Shown: piece after piece, positions 3 through 62,337 of the stretch
Layout: the number at the start of each line of letters is the position of its first letter
Position numbering within the stretch: the stretch's first letter is position 1
Assembly (NCBI GenBank): GCA_964419675.1
Contig: CAYQPN010000001.1
Span: 100,480 to 164,479 of the forward strand
Direction: 5' to 3'
Source of the DNA: an uncultured Candidatus Saccharibacteria bacterium
GTDB taxonomy: Bacteria; Patescibacteriota; Saccharimonadia; Saccharimonadales; SZUA-47
DNA: 64,000 bases
Translations under genes and position numbers: made by a program
The notes under the pieces: model-generated
What the model saw: the letters and a program-made list of their open reading frames with translations, nothing else
What the model was told of the DNA's origin: nothing
The model's database searches: none

Positions 3-134
3 ATAAAAAAAGGTCAAGTGTATATGCACGGTGATAACGCCGAAAGCTCTACAGACAGTAGAACCTTAGGGCCGATTCCAGACACAAAAGTCGAGGGAAT
101 TGTTATTTGGCCCAATACCCAGCTCAAGAGATAG
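3..134 (+). CDS. Signal peptidase I, C-terminal fragment (5' end outside window)
   Basis: The in-frame translation is ...IKKGQVYMHGDNAESSTDSRTLGPIPDTKVEGIVIWPNTQLKR*. It carries the SPase I C-terminal motifs (GDN..S.DSR, GP(I/V)P). The stop TAG is at 132-134. Confidence 0.55.
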   Translation: MKKGQVYMHGDNAESSTDSRTLGPIPDTKVEGIVIWPNTQLKR

Positions 135-151
135 TATTTAGTTGCTTCCCC

Positions 152-185
152 ACATATTATACGCTATAGCGTATAATATGTGTAT
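152..185. repeat. Perfect 34-bp palindrome acacatattatacgcta|tagcgtataatatgtgt, copy 1; 37 nt are identical to 48545..48581
   Basis: Read directly from the sequence. It has 17-nt perfectly complementary arms and contains TATAAT on both strands. It lies between the convergent 3' ends of the SPase fragment and the 199..1158 gene. Confidence 0.8.
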
Positions 186-198
186 GTATGGTAATGAA

Positions 199-1158
199 TT
201 ATAGTTGTTTGTGTTTTTTTAGGTGGAAATACGCAATTGTGCCAGGGATTAGTGGTTGCCAGTAGGTAATGGCGCGAAACAGTATTGCCACGCTGGTGGC
301 CTCTGGAGCCCCATAGCCGAGCAAGAACAGCATTCCAGCAGTACCGGCCTCTACACCGCCCAAACCACCTGGGGTTGGCAATATGCCTCCCACTAACACT
401 CCACTGCTCAAGGCGATTAGTGCGTCTACGTAGCTTATCGATATCCCTATAGAGTGTGCACTAAGTAGTAAAATTGCAATATTAACGTTTAAAATAACCG
501 TTGCCACAAGCAACAAACCGACGAACCTGTACGGTTGGGAGGCCAGCAGTTTTATTTGTTGTTTCCACTGTTTGCTAAATTTTAGTAATTTGCCATTAAT
601 CTGGCGCACTTTAAGTAAATAGTTAATGAGTATGCCAATTAATATGATAGTCGCAAGTATTACAACTACTGCGTACCCAGAGACACTGTCGCCGAGAATT
701 GTTCTAGCACTAGAACTCAAGAAGAATAATGCAATTAAAAATAATACGTTTAAGAATATACCAATGATATTGTTTGTGGCGCTTACAATAATTGCTTGCT
801 GAGCTGATACACCAATTTTTATTAAGTGAAGTGCGGTGACTCCTAACCTTCCTAACCCACCAGGCACGATTCTGCCGGGCCCACTACCTGCAAGTTGAGC
901 TAGCGTCATGGGGATTGTCTTTACTTTGCGCTTCATAAGAAGTTTATAACTGAGAGAAGTTATGGGCAGAAGTAGCCAGTATAGTACAAGTGCACTTGAT
1001 AATATTGCCAGGTTGCTACCCGCTATGGTTGAAATTGACTCTTGAATGTTCTTCCACTGGCTAGCGCTAAATAAAACTAGTATAAGTAAACCTGCTAATT
1101 CAAGAATGGCCCGTTTTTTAACGCGCGGAAATTGTAATTTTTCGGTTATAGATAGCAT
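199..1158 (-). CDS. Integral membrane protein, UPF0104 / lysylphosphatidylglycerol-synthase-like flippase-type domain
   Basis: 319 aa and polytopic. It has the Gly-rich C-terminal segment GGLGGVEAGTAGMLFLLGYG typical of this family. Confidence 0.45.
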   Translation of the reverse strand: MLSITEKLQFPRVKKRAILELAGLLILVLFSASQWKNIQESISTIAGSNLAILSSALVLYWLLLPITSLSYKLLMKRKVKTIPMTLAQLAGSGPGRIVPGGLGRLGVTALHLIKIGVSAQQAIIVSATNNIIGIFLNVLFLIALFFLSSSARTILGDSVSGYAVVVILATIILIGILINYLLKVRQINGKLLKFSKQWKQQIKLLASQPYRFVGLLLVATVILNVNIAILLLSAHSIGISISYVDALIALSSGVLVGGILPTPGGLGGVEAGTAGMLFLLGYGAPEATSVAILFRAITYWQPLIPGTIAYFHLKKHKQL

Positions 1159-1504: not shown

Positions 1505-1801
1505 CTATTTACTTAATTTTATTAATTCATCAACTAATTTGTCATCTTGTTTTAGAGCGTAACAGATTTTTTGACCTGTTCTTTCTTTCTCTACTAACCC
1601 TATCATTTCAAAGTTCCTGAAATGTTGAGATACAGCGGAAACAGATATATCTAGTTGATTAGCTATCTCACTAACGCAAAGCTCTTTGTCGGATGCAAGT
1701 AGTTTAAACATTTTAAAGCGTGTTTTATCACCAAGAATTTGCATAGCGTGAATTAGACGCTCTTCATTTCGGGATAGTTGTTGCATTGCATTTAAGTTCA
1801 T
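1505..1801 (-). CDS. ArsR/SmtB-family HTH transcriptional regulator
   Basis: 98 aa with the HTH ELCVSEIANQLDISVSAVSQHF…L and a wing (ERTGQKICYAL). Confidence 0.75.
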   Translation of the reverse strand: MNLNAMQQLSRNEERLIHAMQILGDKTRFKMFKLLASDKELCVSEIANQLDISVSAVSQHFRNFEMIGLVEKERTGQKICYALKQDDKLVDELIKLSK

Positions 1802-1868
1802 GTTAGTATTTTAGCAAACACTTAAACAAATGTCAAGTGGTGAGATGTGTAAGTTAAATTAACCGGAG

Positions 1869-3432: not shown

Positions 3433-3507
3433 TGGGATGTCGCCAAGTGGTAAGGCACTGGTTTCTGGAACCAGCATTCGTAGGTTCGAATCCTACCATC
3501 CCAGCCA
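3433..3507 (+). tRNA. tRNA-Gln (anticodon CUG)
   Basis: It folds as a cloverleaf: acceptor TGGGATG/CATCCCA, D-arm GCCAAGTGGTAAGGC, anticodon stem CTGGT/ACCAG with loop TTCTGGA, T-arm GTAGGTTCGAATCCTAC, and discriminator G plus an encoded CCA. It closely resembles bacterial tRNA-Gln. Confidence 0.85.
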
Positions 3508-3546: not shown

Positions 3547-3654
3547 TGTGTCTGTAGGATTTGAACCGATAGGCGAAATATGTCAGTGACATATTGAGTT
3601 TTCCCTGCTTGGCTGAACGAGATGCGGTCCCGCTCTCGAGTGAGCAAATTTGGG

Positions 3655-3676
3655 CGAATCCTACCATCCCAGCCAA
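3655..3676 (+). repeat. 22-nt direct repeat identical to the tRNA-Gln 3' end (cgaatcctaccatcccagccaa = 3487..3508); attR-like
   Basis: Exact match seen in the sequence. It is preceded by a ~105-nt arm-like element (3548..3654) that is homologous to 11950..12052 and 16131..16225. Confidence 0.75.
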
Positions 3677-4114
3677 TTTTGAAATTTTTTGCAAAAGGTC
3701 GTTATTATTAACGTCTTTAATCTTTCACCGATGTTCCTAGTCTCCAAGACCCTGATTATAATGTATGTGTTTTGAATGACCGATTTGGATAAGTTTATTA
3801 ATGTGCTAAAGCTTGTTATAATTATATTTAAATATATGGGGTACAAAAGGCGAGAACTTTTTGACGTAATTCGAGGGTTGAGCCGGGGCGTTAATAAGCT
3901 CGTAACCAACTCCGCTATTGTAGTTCGAAATATTATCATAGTTACCAAAATCTACTTGATACCAATCATAGTAGTCGTACTTGTATGGTTACGCACCACT
4001 ACTGTTTATATTGATGAACACTACTGGAGTCCACAACGTAAAAGATTGATTTTGAAATTTAAACCCTTGCAGAGATGGGATGCATGGGCATACCGACCAC
4101 AGGCAAGAAAATCC

Positions 4115-7100
4115 ATGGAGTTAATGCTAGCAGTCCTATTTATCAGCTCGATATTTCAGGCAGCGCTCCAGGCAGCTCCCGATCTTAATGATGACTGGGA
4201 TTTGGCTAATGCGGTTGACTATACCTATGATTCAGGAATAGAGATGGTGTCTGGTGTTGCACGGCTTAAGACTCAAAATTATGAAAACGACGCCGATACA
4301 AGGGCGCTATACCACTTTGATGAATCCGGAGGTATCAACGCTTCTGATAGTTCGTCAAACAGCAATAATGCAACAATTTCAGGGGGCAGTTTTGTAGCAG
4401 GGAGCTTGAATAATGCAGTTTCGCTTGACGGCATTGACGACACAGTAACTGCACCTAACAGTGCAAGCCTGCAACTCGGTCAACAGCACACCATTGAGGC
4501 TTGGACTAAGTTTAATAATAATTTCGATAGCACCTCTCACGACCGAAGAAATGCAGTTGTAGATAAGGGAGATTACCAGCTTTACTATGACAATGAAACT
4601 GGTAAGTTAACATATGAAATTGCTAACTCTACGTCATCAAATTGGACACAAACAGCGGGTAGTAACATTGGTGGTAGTTGGGGGACGAACGGCAAGCGAA
4701 GCGTGACGTCCAGTATAGTGATGGGCTCTGATGTTTATGCTGGATTAGGAAATCAGCTTGCTGATGCTGAAGTATGGATGTGGAACGGCAGTGACTGGGA
4801 ACTTGTCGGCGGTGACGGGGTTAACGGTTCTTGGGACGATCAAACATTTGAAGATGTATATTCAATGACAACAGATGGCACTAATCTATATGCCGGACTA
4901 GGAACAACCGCAGGTGATGCCGAAGTATGGCGATGGGATGGAGCCACTTGGACAAAAATTGGGGGCGATGCGGTTAGCAGTAGTTGGCAAGTTAGTACCT
5001 TTGAAACAGTCGGTTCTCTTAACTACTTTGGTTCGAATCTGTACGCTGGTTTGGGCAGTAGCGCGAGCGACGCTGAAGTATGGCGCTGGAACGGCACAAC
5101 TTGGACAAAAATAGGCGGTGACAGCTTGAACAGTGGTTGGGTTGCTGGATATGAGATTGTCTCGGCTCTGGCTGACGACGGCACTAATTTATACGCCGGC
5201 CTAGGAACAACCGCCAACGACGCCGAAGTATGGATGTGGAATGGAACCGCTTGGTCGCAAATTGGCGGTGACAGTTTGAACAGTGGTTGGGCTGCTGGGT
5301 TTGAGGCTGTAAGAGCGATGCGATACATTGCAGGAATTTTATATGCAGGTCTGGGTGATACGGCAGGAGATGCAGATTTATGGTCATGGAACGGGGCTAC
5401 ATGGTCGCAAATTGGCGGTGACGGCCTAAACGGAAGCTGGAATACAAACTATGAAGGCATATATGCAATCGGTACTGACGGAACCGACATTTATGCAGGG
5501 CTGGGTACGGGGAATGGCGACGGAGAAGTGTGGCGACGTAGTGGAGGAAGTTGGTCGCAAATTGGTGGCGATGGCCTAAACGGAAGCTGGACCACAAACT
5601 TTGGGGACACGGTATATACGCTTCCTAATAATGGCACTACTGTTTATGCCGGAATTTACGACACGGCGGGAGGTGGCTACTTATACTCTTGGAACGGCAC
5701 AACTTGGACCACTCTCGGTGGACAATACATAAATAATAGTTGGGGTTATTACGGGCAAGGTTCTGTGGAAGTACTTCAAGTGTCTGGGGAGTATCTATAC
5801 GCCGGCCTTGGTTCAGCAAGTGGGTCAGCACAGATATGGCGTCTAAGCGGGAGTACCTGGAGTTTAGTTGGTGGTCAAGGAATAAACAATAGCTGGCCAG
5901 CGAATACATATGAGCAAGTTTCTAGTATGAGTAGCCACGAGGGTAACTTGTATGTCGGGCTGGGTACTACAGCCAACGACAGTGAAGTATGGATGTGGAA
6001 CGGCACCACGTGGTCGCAAATTGGTGGTGACAGCTTAAATAGCGGTTGGACTACCAATTTTGAAGAGGTAAACTCACTCGCTAGCTTTAATGGTGATTTG
6101 TACGCGGGCTTAGGTAATAGCAATAACGATGCTGAAGTATGGCGGTGGAACGGCGCAACCTGGACAAAAATAGGTGGCGACAGCCTGAACAGTGGTTGGA
6201 CTACCAACTATGACAGAGTAAGTTCATTGGCGGTTTATAAAGGTAATTTAATTGCTGGTCTCGGAGCAGGAGCCGGAGAGGCTGAACTGTGGCAGTGGAA
6301 CGGCGCAGCTTGGTCAAAAATAGGTGGCGATAGCCTGAACAGTAGCTGGGATAGTACTTTTGAGCAGATAGAAGCACTGATTCAATTTAACAATAAGCTG
6401 TATATAGGTCTTGGAAACACTGCGGGTGACGGCGAAGTGTGGGAACTTGATGATACAACGTGGACCAAGATTGGAGGCGACGACTTAAATAATAGTTGGG
6501 CAGACGGTACTTATGAAAGGGTACGCACCCTAGCTACTTACAACGGTGATTTATTTGCAGGCCTTGGTAGCGGAACTGGCGAAGGAGAAGTCTGGAGATA
6601 CTCGGCCGGAAGTTGGACTAAAGTGGGTGGTAATAGCGTCAATACTTCTTGGGGTAACACCATGGAAGAGGTTGAATCTTTTAGTACTTACCAAGGTAAG
6701 CTTTACGCTGGGACTGGCAACACCGCCAATGCGGATGCAACCGTGTGGTCGCTTGGTGATAATGGTTACCTGCAATCAACAACCAGTAGTTTCAACACAG
6801 ACTGGCGTCACGTGGCTGCTTCGTACAACGGCAGTACGATGAGAATTTATATTAACGGCACACTCGAAAATTCACTGTCAAAAACGTTTAGTGTAGCAAC
6901 TAGTAATCGTGACTTACTCATTAGTACAGGATATGGTGGTCGTGAATACGGTAAACCACAGGCAAGATTTCAGGGACTTATTGATGAGGTGCGTCTAAGC
7001 AGTGTTAGCCGGTCGTCGTTTACTACCAGCCCATATGCGAGTTCACCGCAGTCCCTAAGGCCACAAGACAGTGTGAGAAAAAATGGCGTATGGCACTGGG

Positions 7101-9940
7101 ACACATTTAGCCATAATGAAACCCCTAACGGCGGATCGGTTAACTATAGGCTATCGTCCGACGAAGGCACCACATGGCTATTCTGGGACGGCTTAGCATG
7201 GTCGCAATCAAATAGCCTTACCGAGGCAAATACAGTCGCTGTTATAACTGCTAACTTTGACGAGTTCCCTGTGACATTTGACGGAATGCTCTGGCAGGCA
7301 GTTCTTAGTGGCAATGGGTCACAGCAAGTTATTCTTGACGGTGTAAACGCTGATGCAACTTCTGACACCATCGACCCAACTTCCAACCCGTCGAACATAG
7401 TCGCCTACAAGGCAAACGGGGGTACTGTACTTGCTCAAGACGATTGGACAAATGGCGGGTCACCCTACTTTACCTGGGATGTCGGTGATGACGCCGAATC
7501 AGAAGTGAAGGGTTATTGTGCGTATCTAGGAACTGATGAGCTAGCGGATCCAGTGACAACCAAAGGGCTACTGGGTAATAGCCCAGCTCCAACAGGTGAT
7601 AACTGTCAGTTTATGGTGACTGGAACTTCACTTGACCTAGCAACTCCAGGACTCTTATCAACACCACTCTCAACAACAAACGACACCTACTATCTAAACT
7701 TGCGGACAATTGATAATGCCGGCAATGTCACCAACACCTCTTCTCAATTTTCATTTAGGTTTGATAATACGATGCCAACGAATCCCGGCTACATTACCGC
7801 ACCTTCGGGCTTTATAAACACAAAAGACGTCTCAATGTCATGGCCAACTATAGGCGGTAGTGCACCAAGTGACAGCAATTCAGGATTAGTCGGGCTTCAG
7901 TATCGAATCGGCGCGGGCGGTACATGGTACGGGGATGGTCATACGGGGCTTGGCGACATGGCTGATTTGCTGAACAATGACGGAGAATACAATACTCTAG
8001 AAACTCCCGACTATGCCTCACTCATTGAAGGAATTAACACAGTCTACTTTAGAACGTGGGATTTGGCTGGTAACGTATCTACAACATATGTAACAGCAAC
8101 TCTCAAAATTAACACCAGTGGTGCACCGAGTGTACCGAACAACCTAGTTGCAACACCGACGACAAACACTGCTAACTCCTTTGGATTTAATTGGGATGCT
8201 CCGACGACGTTTATTGGTGACGAGAATAACATTACTTACTGCTACACAATCAATACACTTCCTTCACCGTCATCTTGTGCGTATACAGGCCCCGGCTCAA
8301 CAGAGCTAACCGTAGGCGCATATGCAACACAACCCGGATTAAACACCATGTACATAGCTGCTCGAGATGAGTCTAGCAACATCAACTACGATAATTATGC
8401 TTCCACAGGATTTACAGCTGACACCCCGTCTCCGGGAGTGCCATTAAATACTGACCTTGTAGACGTATCAATAAAAAATACCAGCAACTGGAGGCTAGCG
8501 CTCACATGGGATGTGCCTACATACACCGGTGGTGGTATCAATAATTACCGAATCTTTAGGTCTACAGACAACATTACATTTAATCAAGTCGGAACGAGTT
8601 CAAGCACTACATACATTGACGCCGGTCTAAGCCAGCAAACCTATTACTACAATATTTCAGCTTGTGACAATACAAATAACTGTGGCGCATCTGGTACAAC
8701 GGTGAGTGGCTTTCCTACCGGTAAATTCACAAGCCCTGCCACGCTTATCGACGGACCAGCTACTAGCGACATTACAACTAAACGAGCAAAAGTCAGCTGG
8801 ACAACTGACCGAGCAAGCGATTCGAAAGTACAAATTGGTACACAAAGTGGCGAATATAGCCCATCCGAGGTTGGTAATTCAGATCAAACATCGGTTCATG
8901 AAATTTCTCTGGACAATTTGTCGCCAGGAACAACCTACTACTTAAAAGTAAAATGGACAGACGAGGACGGAAACACAGGCACTAGCTCAGAGCAGACATT
9001 CACGACCGCCCCAGCACCTTCAATTATAGAGCTAGAAGTAACCGGAGTCGGTCTTGGCAGTGCGGGACTTGCCTTTACAACTCGGGGTGCCACAAAGGCT
9101 ACTGTCTACTACGGTACTAGCGAATCGTTTGGCGGGCTAAAAACGGTGAATACTGCAACTGTAGAGTCGCGCTATCAGGTAGAATTAGACGATTTGACCG
9201 ACGGCACAAAATACTACTACATGGTAAGTACCTACGACCAAGAAGGCGCAGAATACAGAGGCAATGTCGGCTCGTTCTCCACGCCACCTCGACCAAGAAT
9301 AACTAATCTTAGGTTCCAACCTGTTGCAGGAGAGCCAACAAGTACCCAGCAGGTAACATGGGACACAAACGTTCCAAGTAGTAGTCAGGTTACCTACAAT
9401 ATTGTTAACGGAACCCCAATTGAAGTACAGGACTCTAGCCTAGTAACTTCTCATGAAATTGTCATACGTAATCTAAGTGATGACAGTGAATATGTTCTTA
9501 CGGCCCTAAGCCGTGATGCGTCAGGAAATTCTACAACTTCAGATAGGCAAGTTTTCCGAACAGCACTTGATACCAGACCTCCAAAAGCCACAGATGTTGT
9601 CGTTGAATCTTCTATTAGGGGTTCCGGTTCAGAGGCTCGTGGCCAAATAGTAGTCTCGTGGCGCACGGACGAACCATCGACAAGCCAAGTTGCGTATGCT
9701 GAAGGTTCAGACGCTGTAACCTTTAACAGCAAGACGGTTGAGGACACGATACTTACGACCGAGCACCTAGTCATTATTTCTGATTTGCCAACTTCTCGAG
9801 TCTTTAGTGTCCAGCCCCTTTCAAAAGACTCTGCAGGCAATGAAGGTCAAGGAGAAACTCAGACCGCCATTATTGGACGGGCATCAGACAGTGCTATTAC
9901 CGTCGTATTCAATACACTTAAAGCGATATTTGGATTATAA
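4115..9940 (+). CDS. Giant secreted repeat protein: about 20 tandem ~45-50-aa beta-propeller-like repeats, a LamG/concanavalin-like domain and multiple Fn3-like domains
   Basis: The ORF is open from 3776 (2054 aa). The likely start is the ATG at 4115 (MELMLAVLFISSIFQAALQAAP, signal-peptide-like). The upstream 113 codons are AT-rich and non-protein-like. The repeat consensus is …NLYAGLGTTANDAEVWRWNGTTWTKIGGDSLNSGW…. The LamG motif is DWRHVAASYNGSTMRIYINGTLENS. Fn3-like signatures include TTYYLKVKWTDEDGNTG and TKYYYMVSTYDQEG. Confidence 0.8.
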   Translation: MELMLAVLFISSIFQAALQAAPDLNDDWDLANAVDYTYDSGIEMVSGVARLKTQNYENDADTRALYHFDESGGINASDSSSNSNNATISGGSFVAGSLNNAVSLDGIDDTVTAPNSASLQLGQQHTIEAWTKFNNNFDSTSHDRRNAVVDKGDYQLYYDNETGKLTYEIANSTSSNWTQTAGSNIGGSWGTNGKRSVTSSIVMGSDVYAGLGNQLADAEVWMWNGSDWELVGGDGVNGSWDDQTFEDVYSMTTDGTNLYAGLGTTAGDAEVWRWDGATWTKIGGDAVSSSWQVSTFETVGSLNYFGSNLYAGLGSSASDAEVWRWNGTTWTKIGGDSLNSGWVAGYEIVSALADDGTNLYAGLGTTANDAEVWMWNGTAWSQIGGDSLNSGWAAGFEAVRAMRYIAGILYAGLGDTAGDADLWSWNGATWSQIGGDGLNGSWNTNYEGIYAIGTDGTDIYAGLGTGNGDGEVWRRSGGSWSQIGGDGLNGSWTTNFGDTVYTLPNNGTTVYAGIYDTAGGGYLYSWNGTTWTTLGGQYINNSWGYYGQGSVEVLQVSGEYLYAGLGSASGSAQIWRLSGSTWSLVGGQGINNSWPANTYEQVSSMSSHEGNLYVGLGTTANDSEVWMWNGTTWSQIGGDSLNSGWTTNFEEVNSLASFNGDLYAGLGNSNNDAEVWRWNGATWTKIGGDSLNSGWTTNYDRVSSLAVYKGNLIAGLGAGAGEAELWQWNGAAWSKIGGDSLNSSWDSTFEQIEALIQFNNKLYIGLGNTAGDGEVWELDDTTWTKIGGDDLNNSWADGTYERVRTLATYNGDLFAGLGSGTGEGEVWRYSAGSWTKVGGNSVNTSWGNTMEEVESFSTYQGKLYAGTGNTANADATVWSLGDNGYLQSTTSSFNTDWRHVAASYNGSTMRIYINGTLENSLSKTFSVATSNRDLLISTGYGGREYGKPQARFQGLIDEVRLSSVSRSSFTTSPYASSPQSLRPQDSVRKNGVWHWDTFSHNETPNGGSVNYRLSSDEGTTWLFWDGLAWSQSNSLTEANTVAVITANFDEFPVTFDGMLWQAVLSGNGSQQVILDGVNADATSDTIDPTSNPSNIVAYKANGGTVLAQDDWTNGGSPYFTWDVGDDAESEVKGYCAYLGTDELADPVTTKGLLGNSPAPTGDNCQFMVTGTSLDLATPGLLSTPLSTTNDTYYLNLRTIDNAGNVTNTSSQFSFRFDNTMPTNPGYITAPSGFINTKDVSMSWPTIGGSAPSDSNSGLVGLQYRIGAGGTWYGDGHTGLGDMADLLNNDGEYNTLETPDYASLIEGINTVYFRTWDLAGNVSTTYVTATLKINTSGAPSVPNNLVATPTTNTANSFGFNWDAPTTFIGDENNITYCYTINTLPSPSSCAYTGPGSTELTVGAYATQPGLNTMYIAARDESSNINYDNYASTGFTADTPSPGVPLNTDLVDVSIKNTSNWRLALTWDVPTYTGGGINNYRIFRSTDNITFNQVGTSSSTTYIDAGLSQQTYYYNISACDNTNNCGASGTTVSGFPTGKFTSPATLIDGPATSDITTKRAKVSWTTDRASDSKVQIGTQSGEYSPSEVGNSDQTSVHEISLDNLSPGTTYYLKVKWTDEDGNTGTSSEQTFTTAPAPSIIELEVTGVGLGSAGLAFTTRGATKATVYYGTSESFGGLKTVNTATVESRYQVELDDLTDGTKYYYMVSTYDQEGAEYRGNVGSFSTPPRPRITNLRFQPVAGEPTSTQQVTWDTNVPSSSQVTYNIVNGTPIEVQDSSLVTSHEIVIRNLSDDSEYVLTALSRDASGNSTTSDRQVFRTALDTRPPKATDVVVESSIRGSGSEARGQIVVSWRTDEPSTSQVAYAEGSDAVTFNSKTVEDTILTTEHLVIISDLPTSRVFSVQPLSKDSAGNEGQGETQTAIIGRASDSAITVVFNTLKAIFGL

Positions 9941-11931: not shown

Positions 11932-12052
11932 TCGGTTCACAGTACAGTTTAGTGTTAGGTTAGAACCAGCGTTTTGTTATAAAATAGGCTCGTCTATCAG
12001 TCACAGTCCCTGCAAAGCGGGCGACTGGATTGAGATGGTAATTCATCCCACA

Positions 12053-12070
12053 ATCCCAGCCAATTAAAAC
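12053..12070 (+). repeat. Third partial copy of the tRNA-Gln 3' end plus downstream flank (atcccagccaaTtaaaac vs atcccagccaaCtaaaac at 3498..3515)
   Basis: 17 of 18 nt are identical and the match extends past the tRNA CCA end. The upstream ~100 nt (11950..12052) are homologous to the arm element 3548..3654. Confidence 0.55.
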
Positions 12071-38357: not shown

Positions 38358-38569
38358 ACTTTTAATTAACCATCGTAGACTGCTATAATTAGCAATATTA
38401 ACAATTAAACATATAAAGAGTGTGGAGTAGGGATCTAGCCCGCAAATACCACCAGCAACCGGCAATTATGCAAAGGTGCTAAATCTAGCCCGACTTGGTT
38501 GGGGAAGATATTTGCTACACATTAGTAAGCCTTTCTTGACCATCGGTGGCCATAAGAAAGGTTTTTTTG

Positions 38570-39676
38570 ATGTCATACAAATTATTTACAAGTGAGTCAG
38601 TAGCTGCCGGGCACCCAGATAAAATTGCAGACGCAATTAGTGATGCTATTTTAGATGCAATTCTAGAGCAAGACCCTCATGCACGGGCCGGACTCGAAAC
38701 TATTGTTGGTGCTAATAAAGTTGGGCTGTTTGGCGAAATTAAGACTAGCGCAAAAGTTAACTTTAAAGAAGTAACCAAAAAAGAGATTAGAAGATTAGGT
38801 TATACAAACACTGATTGGAACTTTTCAGACAAATCTCCGATTGAAGTAAATATTCACCAACAATCACCAGAAATAGCCATGGGAGTTGACCTAGATGGTG
38901 CTGGCGATCAAGGTATGATGTTTGGCTTTGCGTGTAACGAAACTCCAGAGCTGATGCCTCTTCCGATTACACTTGCCCACGCTCTTACAAGAGCCCTAGA
39001 CGAGTCCCGAGAAAGTGGGGCTATTTCTTTTGTAAGACCTGATGGTAAGAGTCAAGTAACGGTTGCGTATGAAGACGGCAAACCTGTTGCTGTTGAAAAG
39101 GTTGTAATGGCTTTGGCGCACGATGAAAAAACTTCTCCTGATGAAGTTCATAAAGTAATTAAAGAGAAAATCATAGACGAAGTTATGAAAAAATATGGCT
39201 ATAGCGTGTCGGACAAACAGGTTGTGATAAACGGCACTGGGCTGTGGCACATTCCTGGTCCTGATACTGACGCCGGCTTAACGGGTAGAAAAATTGTTGT
39301 TGACGGATACGGTGGCTACGCAAGAGTTGGTGGTGGGGCGTTTTCAGGCAAAGACCCAAGTAAGGTTGACCGCTCTGGAGCGTACGCAGCCCGCTACATT
39401 GCTAAAAACGTAGTAGCAGCAGGTCTAGCCGAAAAATGCGAAGTAGCACTAGCCTACGTAATCGGTAGGGCAGACCCAATGATGAAGGCCTTTGATACTT
39501 TTGGCACTGAAACAGATTCAATAGAAAACATCCAAAAATTCATTGATAGGTTGCTTGATACGTCGGTGAAGGGAATTGTAGATGGCTTAAACCTTCGAAG
39601 GCCAATATACAGTTCCACAACGGCCTACGGCCACTTCGGCAAAAAAGATTTGCCATGGGAACAAATATCTAAATAG
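38570..39676 (+). CDS. metK: S-adenosylmethionine synthetase
   Basis: …LFTSESVAAGHPDKIADAISDAILDAILEQDP…, GGGAFSGKDPSKVDRSGAY. Confidence 0.9.
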   Translation: MSYKLFTSESVAAGHPDKIADAISDAILDAILEQDPHARAGLETIVGANKVGLFGEIKTSAKVNFKEVTKKEIRRLGYTNTDWNFSDKSPIEVNIHQQSPEIAMGVDLDGAGDQGMMFGFACNETPELMPLPITLAHALTRALDESRESGAISFVRPDGKSQVTVAYEDGKPVAVEKVVMALAHDEKTSPDEVHKVIKEKIIDEVMKKYGYSVSDKQVVINGTGLWHIPGPDTDAGLTGRKIVVDGYGGYARVGGGAFSGKDPSKVDRSGAYAARYIAKNVVAAGLAEKCEVALAYVIGRADPMMKAFDTFGTETDSIENIQKFIDRLLDTSVKGIVDGLNLRRPIYSSTTAYGHFGKKDLPWEQISK

Positions 39677-47274: not shown

Positions 47275-47910
47275 ATGTTAGATGTAGTTCAAAATGTGGG
47301 GGCTGGTTTGCAAACACTTCATACGCCTTCACGCCCTTACACTGATGAAGAATATAATAGAAGTACCGGAGAAAGCCTTGTTGACAGAGACGCCTCCACA
47401 TTAATAGAAGTGTATAAAAGTCTAGGAGAGGGCTGTGTTGGGCTAGCATTACCTCAAATTGGCATACATCGTCAAATGTTTGTTGCTTTGTTTGGTTCCC
47501 CAGACTATGAAAGCGAAAATTTAGTTATAGTTACTAACCCTCAAATAACGGTTACGAGCAATGTTTTCTTAAAACTTTATGAAGCTTGCGCGTCTGTTAA
47601 TCATGGAAACTTACACAATGAGGTTGAATCTCCTATAGAGCTAGTTCTTAGTGGAAGGGACGTTTCTGGTGCTCCATACCAGGCTCAACTGGGTGTTTAT
47701 AATGCAAAAATTGCGATGCATGAATTTAATCATTTAGACGGGGGAATAATTTCAGATGATATAAATTTTGTAGGTTTGACGACCGAAGAAGTGGAAGCAG
47801 AATATAGTAGTAGAGTATCAGCAGACGAGGAATGGTATAAAAAAGAACCTTATCGAACAACATCTTCAGGGCTTGCTGTACCTTATACTTTGCTTTTAAG
47901 TACGGTTTAA
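47275..47910 (+). CDS. def: Peptide deformylase (divergent, N-terminally extended)
   Basis: Motif 1 GCVGLALPQIG, motif 2 YEACASV (EGCLS-like), motif 3 AMHEFNHLDGG (HEhDHlnG). Confidence 0.6.
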   Translation: MLDVVQNVGAGLQTLHTPSRPYTDEEYNRSTGESLVDRDASTLIEVYKSLGEGCVGLALPQIGIHRQMFVALFGSPDYESENLVIVTNPQITVTSNVFLKLYEACASVNHGNLHNEVESPIELVLSGRDVSGAPYQAQLGVYNAKIAMHEFNHLDGGIISDDINFVGLTTEEVEAEYSSRVSADEEWYKKEPYRTTSSGLAVPYTLLLSTV

Positions 47911-48506
47911 ACTCTATCCCGAAAAAGATTGGGGTAGTCGGTGAAAATGCCGTCAACACCCCAAGCTTCTAATTCTTCGGCTCGGTCACGGCTATTGACA
48001 GTGTATGCGTAAAGTTCATAACCGCGGTGCTTCATTGATTTTACAAACCCTGACCATAGCCACTGTTGATTAATATGAACTCTTCTTGTACCTAGCAGAG
48101 AGGCTTCAGCTACTGCTCTAACTCCAGACCATTTTTCCAAAACAGCAATCTTTGCTTTTGGCATCAATTTTTTTACAGCATTAAGAATTGCGTACTCTTG
48201 GCTTGAAAATAGAATCTTGCCACTATAGCCCTCAATTTCAGTTGGCAGATGCTTTACAACGGCTAGCTCTTTTATCTCTAAGTTTAATGGTATATTTTTG
48301 TCCATTGCTTCAAGCCCCTCTTGAAGAGTTGTATATATTTCGGTTTTAAGTGTTTGGTCATGAGCCAGCACTACTTTTTTATTGTGCATACGAACGTCCA
48401 GCTCAATCATGTCGGCACTACTGGCAAGCCCACGCTTGATAGCCTTGACGGTGTTTTCTGGCGCCAGTCCTCTTGCTCCGCGGTGTCCTATGATCTCCAT
48501 ATTCAT
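47907..48506 (-). CDS. Glycerophosphodiester phosphodiesterase
   Basis: …MEIIGHRGARGLAPENTVKAIKRGLASSADMIELDVRMHNKKVVLAHD…. Confidence 0.8.
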   Translation of the reverse strand: MNMEIIGHRGARGLAPENTVKAIKRGLASSADMIELDVRMHNKKVVLAHDQTLKTEIYTTLQEGLEAMDKNIPLNLEIKELAVVKHLPTEIEGYSGKILFSSQEYAILNAVKKLMPKAKIAVLEKWSGVRAVAEASLLGTRRVHINQQWLWSGFVKSMKHRGYELYAYTVNSRDRAEELEAWGVDGIFTDYPNLFRDRV

Positions 48507-48545
48507 TAGTATACAGCTAAAGCAAAGTACTTAATACGATTCTAC

Positions 48546-48579
48546 ACATATTATACGCTATAGCGTATAATATGTGTAT
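48546..48579. promoter_or_regulatory. Perfect 34-bp palindrome, copy 2 (37 nt identical to 151..187), in the divergent intergenic region between the GDPD gene and ppa; putative operator or bidirectional -10 region
   Basis: Exact duplicate seen in the sequence. TATAAT is present on both strands of the palindrome. The downstream gene starts are 48506 (-) and 48649 (+). Confidence 0.6.
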
Positions 48580-48648
48580 GTGATGACAGTGGATTACGCT
48601 TGAGTATTTGGTGTACAATTGTAGTAAATTCAAATAAAGGAGTAATTA

Positions 48649-49173
48649 GTGGACTATAATGCAATCTTAAAACCATATTCAGATGGCAAAACAATCAACA
48701 CGGTAATAGAAATTCCTAAAGGCACAACAAACAAAATTGAGTACGATAGGAAGCGTAAAATTATGGTTGTAGACAGAGTAGAACCAGCAATTTTTGCAAA
48801 GCCTGTTAATTACGGTTTTATTCCAGGAACATTAGACGAAGACGGTGATGAGCTTGATACCTTAGTTGTTACGGAAGAGCCGTTGCCAACAGGTGTGACG
48901 CTAGAAGCAACTGTCATTGGTGTATTGAATTTTGAAGACGACGGGGAAATGGACCATAAAGTTATATGCGTGCCAGCTGATGATCGTCACACGGGTAACA
49001 GAGTTAAAGCACTTGACGATTTGGGTGATCAATGGAAAAAACAGATAGAACATCATTTTAGTCATTACAAAGATTTAAAAAAACCGGGTAGCACCAAAGT
49101 TTTGGGTTTTGGGGACGCAAATAATGCACATGAAGTAATCGCCGAATGCATCAAACGCTGGAGCAATGAGTAA
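48649..49173 (+). CDS. ppa: Inorganic pyrophosphatase
   Basis: …IEIPKGTTNKIEYD…VDRV…YGFIPGTLDEDGDELDTLVV…. Confidence 0.9.
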   Translation: MDYNAILKPYSDGKTINTVIEIPKGTTNKIEYDRKRKIMVVDRVEPAIFAKPVNYGFIPGTLDEDGDELDTLVVTEEPLPTGVTLEATVIGVLNFEDDGEMDHKVICVPADDRHTGNRVKALDDLGDQWKKQIEHHFSHYKDLKKPGSTKVLGFGDANNAHEVIAECIKRWSNE

Positions 49174-59682: not shown

Positions 59683-60368
59683 TCTATTTTCTCTGAGACT
59701 ACAATGACTCTAGATTCGAATGTTTCAGTACTTTTGTTATACTTACCCCCACAGGTTATTAAATTAAGTTGGGCTGGGATTTTTTGCTTTTTTTCAAACA
59801 GGTATTCTGCTGAACTGCCCACAGGTGCAGTTATTACTTCTATAACTTCAAAATTAACTATACTTTTGTCACCGTACTCAATATCAAACCTATCACCGCT
59901 TCTAAGATTCTTTAAGTTTTTAAAAATTCCGTCACTGTACTTTCCTGAAACATGGCCGTCTATAATACTCAAACCGACCTCACCGGGCTTAACACTTCCT
60001 GTATACCAACCGGCAAAGTTTATGTTTGAAGGCGCCGTTATCGCGTTACTAGAGTTTACTCCAACTTTTTGAATTAGACCAAAAGCACTGATGGACTGTA
60101 TGTTGATACTCCGAGGTTGGTCCGCTTCAACTATATAATCCGAACTGGTTGGTTTTGTCTCTTCAGGAGAAGAATCTTCCTGAGTTAGTTCAACGCTTTG
60201 ATCGGGCAATGTTGCTGGACCATTATTATATTGTTCTCTGTTTGAAAGTTGAAAAATACTGAGACAAAGAATTACTACAGCAACTATATTCAACAGCTCA
60301 GGCCCAAACTTTTGACTCGCCTGAGCTGCTTTTGCTTTAGCGTTTTTTGTTTGTTTGGCTTTTGCCAT
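59679..60368 (-). CDS. Sortase-family transpeptidase (class D/E-like) with N-terminal TM anchor
   Basis: His region IIDGHVSG…, catalytic LITCGG (TLxTC motif), and an N-terminal basic region plus TM. Confidence 0.65.
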
Positions 60369-62337
60369 AGCGATTTGAAACTAAGATTAATCCTAATGCA
60401 AAAGTTATTAGTGCTATAGGTGTAGAGTTGCTTTGTTTTTGAACTCCAGTATTCGGAACTGTAACTGCAGTTTTAACCGCTGGAGTAGTTGTTACGGCAG
60501 ACAATACAGCAGGTACGGATGCTCGTATTGCAGGACCTGCTGGGTCAACAATAGTTCCGTTTACTAGGCCGTCTTGGTCTAGTAAGCTACCGTCGGTAAC
60601 CTCGTAAACGATCTTTAGTGCTGGTAGTCCACCTATTGTGACGTTTGTAATGACAGCTCCAGGTATTGTTGTGTAGGTGTGCGTGGTTGGGTTATATTTT
60701 CGTGCGGTTACAGTTGAAGCATCAAACGTACCATAGAAGTACTGTGTGATTGTGGCTGTTACAGGCCCTTCATTGTCTCCTTCGCAAGTTAAAGTAAAGT
60801 TCATTATTCCGAATGGGTAATTAAAGCTAGGGTCCGCAAATAATGAGGACTCAGGTGCGACACTGACAGCTTGGTTTAGTGAACAAGGCGAAGATTCAAG
60901 AACGGCATATGAGCCAGCAACTGAGTTGAAGAAGCTTGTTACGTTAGCTTGATTTTTATCAAGTGTTTCGTCGTTATTAGCGTCGCCTGAATTTGGCGCC
61001 CCATCCTCTATACCGTTAGTATGTCCATCGCCGTCATTGTCATTAGCGCTTGTGTCCCACACAAGAGTAAACTTATCGTTCCTATGATTTCCGGCATTGT
61101 CTGTAGCTACTAGTTTAAGTACGTAAGTTCCATCAACATCAGCAGATACTGTAGTTATATCAGAAGTATCGTCACCAAAAGTTATTGTCCCTGGACCACT
61201 GAACATTGACCAAGCTCGGCTTGCAACTCCACTACCGGAATCACTAGATGAACCAACTTGAGTGAATTCTGTACCTTCAGTCCTGTCAGGTCCGGCATCT
61301 ACGGTTGGTTTAGTTGTGTCCCACACAAGAGTAAACTTATCGTTCCTATGATTTCCGGCATTGTCTGTAGCTACTAGTTTAAGTACGTAAGTTCCATCAA
61401 CATCAGCAGATACTGTAGTTATATCAGAAGTATCGTCACCAAAAGTTATTGTCCCTGGACCACTGAACATTGACCAAGCTCGGCTTGCAACTCCACTACC
61501 GGAATCACTAGATGAACCAACTTGAGTGAATTCTGTACCTTCAGTCCTGTCAGGTCCGGCATCTACGGTTGGTTTAGTTGTATCTATAACGATGGCTTTG
61601 TTAGTGGCAAGGTTAGTCGTCGGAACAAAGTTTGTCATAGGATTTAATGCTGCGTCTTTGATAATCCCAGAAACAGAAATTGACGAAACATCAAGGTCGC
61701 TAGAGTCTTCTGAATCAGCAACTGTGTAGTTACATGTTCCTGATGTAGAGCTTGTAACAGTAAAAACACAATTTCCGCCAGTATCTAGTGTGACTAAAAC
61801 ATTCCCAGTTGAAGTAACAGCTTCGGAAAAAGTAACATCAATATCTATGACTTCACCGACTGCATATGTACCGTTGGCTTTGTCAGATGATACGCTAGTA
61901 ATTGTTGGAGCCGTAGTGTCTATTACGTAAGCAAAGCTCGCGGTACTCGACCCGAATAAAAGCGTGCATCCTCGTACGTACAAAGTCTGAGACGAAGCAA
62001 CAGATATTGCGCCGGTGTAGGTAGTTCCAGAAAAGCAGCCCGGTGTTGCAGAGGTTGAATATTGAATCCAGGTGCTACCAGCCGACGTTAAGCTTACTGA
62101 CTGAGCTGAATTGTATGTGCCTGCAACTGGAGAAGCAACAGGCGTTGATGGAGCTGCTGAAGCACTCGGGACAAATAATTGTAAGGGCATTGCCCCGACT
62201 AAGATTATATAAGCCAATGCTAAATTTAGTTTTGATTTTGTAATTTGGCGTAGTTTAATACCCATTTTGGTGCACTCCTTTGTAAGACTTATTATAAAGC
62301 CCACCGTACCTGATATTATTATATCACCATCTGTCAA
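60337..62337 (-). CDS. Secreted cell-surface protein with two identical 88-aa tandem domains and a C-terminal sortase-type sorting signal (VPNTG + TM + basic tail)
   Basis: Signal peptide: …LALAYIILVGAMPLQLFVPSASA. C-terminus: …[41 protein letters not shown]. Confidence 0.6.
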   Translation of the reverse strand: MTDGDIIISGTVGFIISLTKECTKMGIKLRQITKSKLNLALAYIILVGAMPLQLFVPSASAAPSTPVASPVAGTYNSAQSVSLTSAGSTWIQYSTSATPGCFSGTTYTGAISVASSQTLYVRGCTLLFGSSTASFAYVIDTTAPTITSVSSDKANGTYAVGEVIDIDVTFSEAVTSTGNVLVTLDTGGNCVFTVTSSTSGTCNYTVADSEDSSDLDVSSISVSGIIKDAALNPMTNFVPTTNLATNKAIVIDTTKPTVDAGPDRTEGTEFTQVGSSSDSGSGVASRAWSMFSGPGTITFGDDTSDITTVSADVDGTYVLKLVATDNAGNHRNDKFTLVWDTTKPTVDAGPDRTEGTEFTQVGSSSDSGSGVASRAWSMFSGPGTITFGDDTSDITTVSADVDGTYVLKLVATDNAGNHRNDKFTLVWDTSANDNDGDGHTNGIEDGAPNSGDANNDETLDKNQANVTSFFNSVAGSYAVLESSPCSLNQAVSVAPESSLFADPSFNYPFGIMNFTLTCEGDNEGPVTATITQYFYGTFDASTVTARKYNPTTHTYTTIPGAVITNVTIGGLPALKIVYEVTDGSLLDQDGLVNGTIVDPAGPAIRASVPAVLSAVTTTPAVKTAVTVPNTGVQKQSNSTPIALITFALGLILVSNRYGKSQTNKKR
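61051..61578. repeat. Perfect 264-bp tandem duplication (2 copies) inside the surface-protein gene
   Basis: 61051..61314 equals 61315..61578 exactly. It encodes the duplicated 88-aa TKPTVDAGPDRTEGTEF…LVWDT unit. Confidence 0.85.

Follow-up and report, generated by a model that had tools for sequence, protein, structure and literature searches.

Winged-helix repressors that silence their own genes through a palindromic operator are a system of known kind. In one of them, the chaperone repressor HrcA acts on CIRCE (controlling inverted repeat of chaperone expression), TTAGCACTC-N9-GAGTGCTAA, which is conserved very widely, occurs in few copies per genome and has one copy at the operon that encodes HrcA itself. 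PaaX of Escherichia coli binds TGATTC-N27-GAATCA, a symmetric site of 39 bp, and keeps RNA polymerase from its own promoter, which it thereby represses (PMC9493321). A long perfect palindrome is also the target of TelN, the telomere resolvase (protelomerase) of phage N15, whose telRL core is cccATTATACGCGCGTATAATggg (PMC12624138). Here we describe a palindrome that occurs twice in a 64,000-nucleotide stretch of DNA (the window) from an uncultured Candidatus Saccharibacteria bacterium (contig CAYQPN010000001.1, positions 100,480 to 164,479) and whose core is found beside a PaaX-like gene in other Patescibacteria (the candidate phyla radiation, CPR). With moderate confidence, at about an even chance, we read it as the operator and symmetric -10 core for a PaaX-like repressor encoded in trans, dispersed by duplication.

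Spread of the core palindrome and the gene linked to it

A 37-nt sequence, CACATATTATACGCTATAGCGTATAATATGTGTATGT, is identical near one end of the window (copy 1) and about 48 kb away (copy 2; Table 1). This identity, noticed earlier in a sequence-only reading of the window, was borne out by direct sequence comparison, and the copies can be aligned over 42 nt with 95% identity (146..187 and 48540..48581; repeat family D9). Scanning the 64 kb with up to 3 mismatches revealed no other sites, and 100 dinucleotide-preserving shuffles gave 0 matches to the repeat, in agreement with the view that so long an exact duplicate is improbable by chance. The same reading had described a perfect 34-bp palindrome at both loci; the symmetry holds, while the perfect palindromes measure 32 bp at copy 1 and 36 bp at copy 2 and lie 2 nt from where they had been placed. 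Copy 1 has C rather than A at position 150 and matches the proposed 34-mer at 33/34 positions. GTATAAT can be read on each strand, as had been claimed, and the palindrome holds two back-to-back -10 boxes 10 bp apart (ATTATA-N10-TATAAT).

The 20-bp core shared by both copies, TTATACGCTATAGCGTATAA, was matched exactly in 15 contigs of a 596-Gb reference set with one genome per bacterial or archaeal species, where by our own estimate from 4^20 about 0.5 hits would be expected by chance. Thirteen of these contigs are from CPR bacteria; the lineages with the core are Paceibacterota, Saccharimonadales, Sungiibacteriota, Nomurabacteria and Parcubacteria. Exact cores were also present in 42 JGI metagenome contigs, and viral contigs yielded 0 matches. 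With 1 to 3 exact hits per reference genome and 2 copies per 64 kb of the window, the available data do not show the dozens of copies that had been named as the mark of an unspecific repeat. Some caution is due for copy counts derived from metagenome-assembled genomes (MAGs), since in an independent assembly of the strain from short reads a contig (Logan contig SRR7369912_500887, L079) starts at TATGTGTATGTGATG, inside the right arm of copy 2, which is the break expected for a repeated palindrome. Separately, a Woeseia sp. (Gammaproteobacteria; L012, 4668-4741) contains the exact 20-mer and two degenerate copies at 27-nt spacing, adjoining an 84-aa open reading frame (ORF) that on visual inspection resembles an XRE/HipB-type helix-turn-helix protein; it has the look of a separate, unrelated operator array, or else of a match outside CPR that arose by chance or was acquired horizontally.

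Translation of the neighboring genes revealed the same protein of ~190 amino acids next to the palindrome at 6 of the 13 CPR reference loci. Once metagenome loci are included, a protein with the PaaX_M domain (PF20803) adjoins the site at 22 of 58 loci, corresponding to 14 of about 33 distinct contexts. Loci fetched by the protein alone (L068, L071, L073 and L076) have GCTATAGC-centered palindromes beside the gene in 4 of 4 cases. In Pfam searches the protein matched the central Cas2-like PaaX_M domain with E values of 1e-19 to 1e-21 and gave weak winged-helix hits in its N-terminal part. E. coli PaaX (8a39) ranked first in a PDB profile search and was again the top Foldseek match (E 7e-5), ahead of Rv0674, Cas2 and VapD, for an AlphaFold model in which residues 60-193 have a pLDDT (predicted local distance difference test score) of about 85 and the N-terminal 59 residues are poorly modeled. 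A winged helix joined to a Cas2-like PaaX_M domain is therefore found in proteins encoded beside the palindrome at loci outside the window.

The resemblance to PaaX extends from the order of domains and the best sequence and fold match to the DNA, in that a long symmetric site, on the scale of 39 bp, lies over promoters; auto-repression is known for E. coli PaaX and predicted in CPR. The differences are equally clear. The CPR proteins lack the phenylacetyl-CoA-binding C-terminal domain, for which family members of 166 to 199 aa gave no Pfam hit, and they reach 23 to 52 bits with the PaaX equivalog model TIGR02277 against a cut-off of 264. Their proposed operator is continuous and conserved at its center rather than in outer hexamers, it has two -10 boxes embedded in it, and their gene, with its leaderless geometry, stands between two sites. 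CPR organisms are not known to have paa catabolic genes.

The family is large: a single query retrieved no fewer than 2,283 clusters at 90% identity, and a profile search, with clusters drawn at 50% identity, gave 483 of them at E ≤ 1e-30 and 2,669 at E ≤ 1e-10. Regulators of different lineages are only 27-35% identical. Orthologues that are only 60-66% identical share the gene orders glyS-regulator-M16 peptidase and secA-regulator-NUDIX, which indicates that the regulator gene is inherited vertically. MPRRT-type regulator loci share no genes with the Saccharibacteria loci, and a search for their homologues gave names no more precise than Patescibacteria or Paceibacterota. Invariant in the family are E124, R130, R134 and an FD motif (F120, D121) with which the first strand ends; D121 would correspond in position to the Cas2 catalytic Asp. 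Two of four members tested pass the cas2 model TIGR01573 (cut-off, 24.5 bits; P0094, 27.5; P0399, 26.5) by way of a ~40-residue match, which would explain why some sources name these proteins CRISPR-associated endonuclease Cas2. No CRISPR genes were seen among the regulator neighbors, and PADLOC returned partial Cas2 model hits only, with no defense-system context. In CPR genomes these winged-helix fusions are probably misannotated as Cas2 in a systematic way.

Two palindromes, lying 617-703 bp from each other, usually flank the regulator gene at its home loci. At 9 of 12 unique upstream sites the TATAAT of the palindrome is followed after 6-8 nt by the ATG or GTG of the regulator, with no Shine-Dalgarno sequence, so that the palindrome overlaps the -10 and +1 positions of the gene; this spacing suggests a leaderless, self-repressed promoter. 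The palindrome overlaps the promoter in the protein-selected loci as well. Two of these, L073 and L076, have a palindrome without TATAAT and a separate -10-like box at the same leaderless spacing, a geometry that points to the conserved center as a site placed on a promoter, not a promoter element, which is how the operator of an auto-repressor would look. The second palindrome lies 30-60 nt past the regulator stop codon. Its center is kept, and the TTAT/ATAA positions are often altered on both arms together, as in TATTACGC...GCGTAATA of L010 and AAATACGC...GCGTATTT of L014.

Two loci place members of the system near chaperone genes. A short, 166-aa family member and a palindrome stand directly upstream of grpE-dnaK-dnaJ in a metagenomic CPR contig (L053, 5346-5410), the place usually taken by hrcA, with TATAAG 9 nt before the grpE ATG, and an orphan palindrome follows groEL in L006. 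Together with the very wide conservation of the inverted repeat, its few copies per genome and the copy at the gene of a winged-helix repressor, this recalls the HrcA-CIRCE system. The CPR sites differ from CIRCE in sequence and belong to another protein family, most of them are away from chaperone genes, and their flanks are variable but mirrored, unlike those of CIRCE. At another locus (L071/L072, 1924-5609), the regulator gene and then a 50-bp perfect palindrome are inserted between the ATP-synthase gamma and beta genes, with PemK and HepT/MNT toxin-antitoxin genes nearby.

Because the core lies on the promoter of a PaaX-like repressor gene across CPR, the window copies are most likely candidate binding sites of that repressor. 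The mechanism we propose begins with the conserved center ACGCTATAGCGT, minimally GCTATAGC, as the probable recognition site of a small DNA-binding protein with an N-terminal winged helix and a Cas2-like PaaX_M dimerization domain and no ligand-binding C-terminal domain. One palindrome over the leaderless promoter of the regulator and another past its stop codon would allow auto-repression, possibly with looping between the two bracketing sites. In the genome of the window, the element would have been duplicated into two intergenic sites, supplying two back-to-back -10 boxes at each. If the regulator is encoded elsewhere in that genome, it would bind over both boxes and keep them closed; such orphan copies may be repressible symmetric promoter cores or mere repressor-binding sites. 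The earlier suggestion of an operator for a dimeric regulator, or a bidirectional promoter core, thus turned out to be the best-supported reading, given the occurrence of the core on winged-helix gene promoters in many CPR genomes. We infer the binding, the repression and the presence of the regulator in the genome of the window, and with them the link of the two copies to the repressor, from these comparisons. The comparisons themselves show the repeat, its spread among lineages, its physical connection with the regulator gene, the geometry of the promoter, the covariation of mirror positions and the lack of the site in relatives.

Mirror symmetry of the sites

At each locus the palindrome runs 6-18 bases past the core on each side, and the sequence of these extensions varies between genomes with its mirror symmetry kept. 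Perfect palindromes of 50-56 bp are reached at some sites (L010 and L071), and imperfect ones are retained at others (L009, L040, L068 and L073). When 48 distinct sites were aligned and their mirror pairs counted, 75.5% of mirror cells were paired, compared to 56.8% in shuffles. The covariation score was 0.495, compared to 0.167 in shuffles and 0.12-0.17 with the partner position slid. Only GCTATAGC is invariant across the aligned sites and ACGCTATAGCGT nearly so, although for the inner 8-10 bases this constancy is in part a product of the way the sites were collected, a bias from which the protein-selected loci are free. In one of the latter, the 50-bp perfect palindrome of L071, a mirrored change affects the center itself (TGCTATAGCA). 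Sites within one genome differ by 36 mirrored double differences, compared to 47 single and 11 uncompensated double ones; by our own estimate, independent change would give a handful of mirrored differences.

Symmetry of this kind could be kept at the level of RNA, if the palindrome formed a hairpin in read-through transcripts and served as a terminator, a 3'-end stabilizer or an RNase III target. Both strands of the window palindromes do fold into stable hairpins of 14-16 bp, with energies of -19.5 to -22.2 kcal/mol and z scores of -4.2 to -5.9. Copy 1 and several other sites come directly after stop codons, and the second palindrome of the home loci follows the regulator stop. The hairpin is AT-rich, however, and continues into ATGTATGG or ATGTGATG without a U-tract; a terminator scan called no intrinsic terminator at copy 1 or copy 2, and the proposed role of copy 1 as a hairpin terminator is not supported. 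The loop is itself palindromic, and the palindromes were unmatched in an Rfam search of the window. Among non-Watson-Crick cells in columns 11-24, G-T accounts for only 16 of 68, that is, G-U is not enriched, and the regulator transcript would start inside the right arm, making a hairpin impossible at the regulator's own promoter. The two last points argue for symmetry at the DNA level rather than for an RNA helix, and we consider the RNA explanation very unlikely.

Within DNA, the upstream sites would need only the gene-side TATAAT, yet the far arm mirrors it; palindromy itself is therefore maintained. The symmetry beyond the recognized center may reflect either the need for a cruciform or hairpin, in which the apex would be conserved and the stem free to vary so long as it pairs, or quasipalindrome template-switch mutation. 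The latter process perfects inverted repeats, and its bias is documented in E. coli.

The first of these leads to a further explanation, in which extruded cruciform or hairpin DNA is the functional form, a protein reads the GCTATAGC apex with the Cas2-like domain as a nuclease or synapsis module, and the sites serve recombination, rearrangement or chromosome organization. An invariant apex on a stem that varies yet always stays paired is what hairpin recognition typically produces, and at the center GC clamps enclose an AT-rich TATA. The invariant F120, D121, E124, R130 and R134, the two members above the cas2 cut-off, and synteny breaks located exactly at the palindrome in related contigs (described below) would also fit. 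Against this stand the clearly imperfect palindromes kept at the four loci named above and the fact that recombination between any 40-60 bp repeats could yield the same breakpoints. The orientation and neighbors of the regulator are stable across orthologues, so the bracketed segment neither inverts nor hops. PaaX-type Cas2-like domains are not known to have nuclease activity. We regard the explanation as distinctly unlikely, and give similarly little weight to its widest form, an unrecognized Patescibacteria-wide system in which winged-helix/Cas2-like proteins bind, bridge or nick GCTATAGC-centered cruciforms or hairpins. Were that form true, the palindromes would be sites of recombination, dispersal or chromosome organization, and the presumed regulator would connect Cas2/VapD nucleases with PaaX repressors in evolution.

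An invertible cassette of the Hin/hix type was rejected because the orientation of the regulator is fixed relative to glyS/M16 and secA/NUDIX in diverged orthologues and no recombinase domain is present. A dif/Xer site was likewise rejected, as the GCGTATAA arms are wrongly oriented relative to dif and the sites are multi-copy.

The window copies and their surroundings

The neighborhoods given in the sequence-only reading are correct: copy 1 is located in the 64 bp that separate a signal-peptidase S26 gene from an LPG_synthase_TM gene, two genes with converging 3' ends, and copy 2 in a 142-bp gap between divergent genes for a glycerophosphodiester phosphodiesterase (GDPD) and inorganic pyrophosphatase (ppa). 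At copy 2 a promoter-like TACACA-17 nt-TATAAT, matching at 10 of 12 positions, is present on both strands, as expected of the bidirectional promoter core that had been proposed. Copy 1 has it on the minus strand only and carries CCCACA at the -35 position of the plus strand. The outer arms were considered as a conserved -35 element and dismissed, since TACACA fits the window but a hand comparison gave only 1-3 of 6 matches in most other lineages.

Table 1. Coordinates of the two palindrome copies and neighboring features in the window
Feature	Position	Strand	Remarks
Copy 1, perfect palindrome, 32 bp	151..182	.	Center between 166 and 167; within the 37-nt identity 151..187
Copy 1, core 20-mer TTATACGCTATAGCGTATAA	157..176	.	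Center ACGCTATAGCGT is the part conserved CPR-wide
Copy 1, promoter-like TACACA-17-TATAAT, 10/12	156..184	- only	Would read antisense into the end of the signal-peptidase gene
Copy 2, perfect palindrome, 36 bp	48543..48578	.	Center between 48560 and 48561; 37-nt identity 48545..48581
Copy 2, core 20-mer TTATACGCTATAGCGTATAA	48551..48570	.	
Copy 2, promoter-like TACACA-17 nt-TATAAT, 10/12	48543..48571	+	Toward ppa; TATAAT 48566..48571
Copy 2, promoter-like TACACA-17 nt-TATAAT, 10/12, mirror	48550..48578	-	Toward GDPD; -10 at 48550..48555
GTGTACAAT / AGTGTACAAT motif	48611..48619	+	Common to the palindrome-free spacers of three relatives
Signal peptidase S26 gene, 3' end	3..134	+	Stop 132..134; convergent with the LPG_synthase_TM gene across copy 1
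LPG_synthase_TM family membrane protein gene	199..1158	-	3' end toward copy 1
GDPD (glycerophosphodiester phosphodiesterase) gene	47907..48506	-	Start toward copy 2; TATACT 7 nt before ATG (read from sequence)
Inorganic pyrophosphatase gene (ppa), operon gene 1	48649..49173	+	Start toward copy 2

By the names of its homologues the window belongs to Saccharibacteria. According to precomputed Pfam hits, the operon downstream of copy 2 is ppa-NUDIX-gap-rpiB-rpe-tkt. Three related Saccharibacteria, with Ppa 81-82% identical, show the same order, GDPD divergent from ppa-(NUDIX)-gap-rpiB-rpe-tkt, with NUDIX missing in L062. Their spacers share a compact motif, GTGTACAAT / AGTGTACAAT (L059, 3926-4000; L060, 2976-3020; L062, 3959-4000), which the window has kept. 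The motif can be read as overlapping divergent -10 boxes, TACAAT and TACACT, and the GDPD gene is probably leaderless, as it starts only 6-8 nt from TACACT in the relatives. The motif in the window is probably the ancestral compact promoter.

Several observations weigh against the proposed operator. The GDPD-ppa spacers of the three relatives measure 42-75 bp and contain no palindrome. As they have kept AGTGTACAAT, and the GDPD gene of the window has its own TATACT, the palindrome is a lineage-specific addition and not the ancestral promoter or operator of the operon; the idea of a dedicated operator of this glycolytic/pentose operon is not borne out. Both genes flanking copy 2 appear to retain promoters of their own. 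Searches of the 64-kb window by tblastn and hidden Markov models found no homologue of the regulator, which makes both copies orphans, and its presence in any Saccharimonadia genome is a prediction. Both hits of a Saccharimonadales MAG with the same CACATA arms are also orphans, one after ligA and one between an Xer-like recombinase gene and ndk. About one-third of orphan sites, copy 1 included, lie between convergent gene ends with no obvious operator target. The identity of the window copies over 37-42 nt looks like recent duplication, not like selection on a binding consensus. Finally, the mirrored changes within genomes and the palindromes of 50-56 bp are not explained by the binding of a simple dimer.

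Much of this would fit a selfish or neutral dispersed palindromic repeat, spread by recombination or in the manner of repetitive extragenic palindromic (REP) sequences and miniature inverted-repeat transposable elements (MITEs), with orphans that have no regulatory role and are kept by template-switch self-correction. The stretch common to the window copies includes non-palindromic flanks, positions are not conserved between related genomes, and the common mirror changes within genomes agree with such self-correction. Sites occur in tandem, convergent and divergent contexts at 10:5:3, roughly as in random intergenic placement. In one metagenomic lineage, at least 4 contexts share a ~60-nt identical unit, and in two contigs (L019 and L049) the sequence right of the palindrome, through a pilin-like and then a TsaE-like gene, agrees at 94% or more in every 50-nt bin over more than 800 nt, and the sequence left of it is unrelated; a third (L025) has the palindrome and ~105 nt of this right flank, including the truncated start of the pilin-like gene. 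These three contigs record rearrangements or segmental duplications anchored at the palindrome, and the shared unit and the synteny break indicate that the element moves or recombines.

Like REP sequences and MITEs, the CPR elements are short intergenic palindromes at non-orthologous positions in all gene-orientation contexts. They differ in their very low copy number (2 per 64 kb in the window and no more than 3 exact cores in any reference genome), and neither terminal repeats nor duplicated target sites are visible, no duplicated flank being found at either window copy. Linkage to a REP-associated tyrosine (RAYT) or other Y1 transposase is missing as well; an IS200-like TnpA occurs in a single context (L040/L046), and none in the window. 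The 12-nt center is conserved over the whole superphylum although the regulators are so divergent, and it is tied to a vertically inherited gene, which implies a sequence-specific function. We therefore consider a purely selfish or neutral repeat possible but unlikely, and continue to prefer an operator that has been dispersed by duplication.

Two further candidates were weighed for the window copies. The nearest winged-helix repressor is an ArsR-family protein (1505..1801; HTH_5, E 5e-13) encoded 1.3 kb from copy 1, which had been put forward as a possible binder. ArsR-family repressors normally regulate themselves. The divergent promoter region of this gene (1802..1868) contains no sequence related to the palindrome, and at 0 of 58 related loci is the palindrome tied to an ArsR gene; it travels with the PF20803 proteins instead. 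We judge this operator assignment highly improbable. Still less credence is due to a protelomerase target like telRL of phage N15. Both are long perfect palindromes with TATAAT on both strands and the half-site ATTATACGC, and hairpin telomeres would automatically remain perfect palindromes. The shared portion is merely GCG plus TATAAT, however, and the CPR center differs by 4 extra bases. The CPR sites are chromosomal and contig-internal, several per genome and amid housekeeping genes, no protelomerase-sized recombinase was found among the CPR neighbors examined, and viral contigs gave no hits.

A prophage or island with the two copies as attachment (att) sites was dismissed, as the 48-kb interval carries housekeeping genes (thioredoxin reductase, peptide deformylase and a SAM riboswitch). 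Other features of the window were recorded in passing. The 3' end (GAATCCTACCATCCCAGCCAA) of a tRNA-Gln gene (3433-3507) is repeated at 3652-3683 and, with 88% identity, at 12040-12070. These repeats bracket a gene for a 2,054-aa repeat protein and two more ORFs, and may be the att-like signature of an integrated island. The 2,054-aa ORF (3776-9940) contains ~11-13 tandem repeats of ~150 nt (50 aa) of the type '...AEVWxWNGxxWxxIGGDxLNxxW...'. A perfect tandem duplication of 2 x 264 nt (100% identical, 61050-61577) lies within a 666-aa ORF (60337..62337, minus strand), which precomputed Pfam hits on L065 identify as the gene for a PKD/Big-like surface protein. An S-adenosylmethionine (SAM) riboswitch (RF00162, 50.2 bits, 38408-38514) precedes a 376-aa ORF (38546..39676); it and tRNA-Gln alone reached the gathering score in the Rfam search of the window.

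Implications for Patescibacteria

Literature searches on the motif, PaaX in CPR, Cas2-like PaaX proteins, CPR operators and leaderless promoters of Patescibacteria returned nothing relevant. No description seems to exist of the protein family, the site conserved CPR-wide, the leaderless cassette with its bracketing sites or the perfect palindromy enforced on them. The self-maintaining palindromy, with its mirrored changes within genomes, provides a clean natural case in which cruciform selection can be set against template-switch mutation.

Transcription factors are very scarce in CPR bacteria, and hardly any cis-element has been defined there by experiment. If the proposed operator is real, a 12-nt center conserved over several CPR lineages would be tied to a large uncharacterized protein family, and recognition of that family would correct a recurrent Cas2 misannotation able to inflate CRISPR counts in CPR genomes. 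It would also supply a testable regulator-operator pair for uncultivated organisms, whose regulons could then be read from sequence alone.

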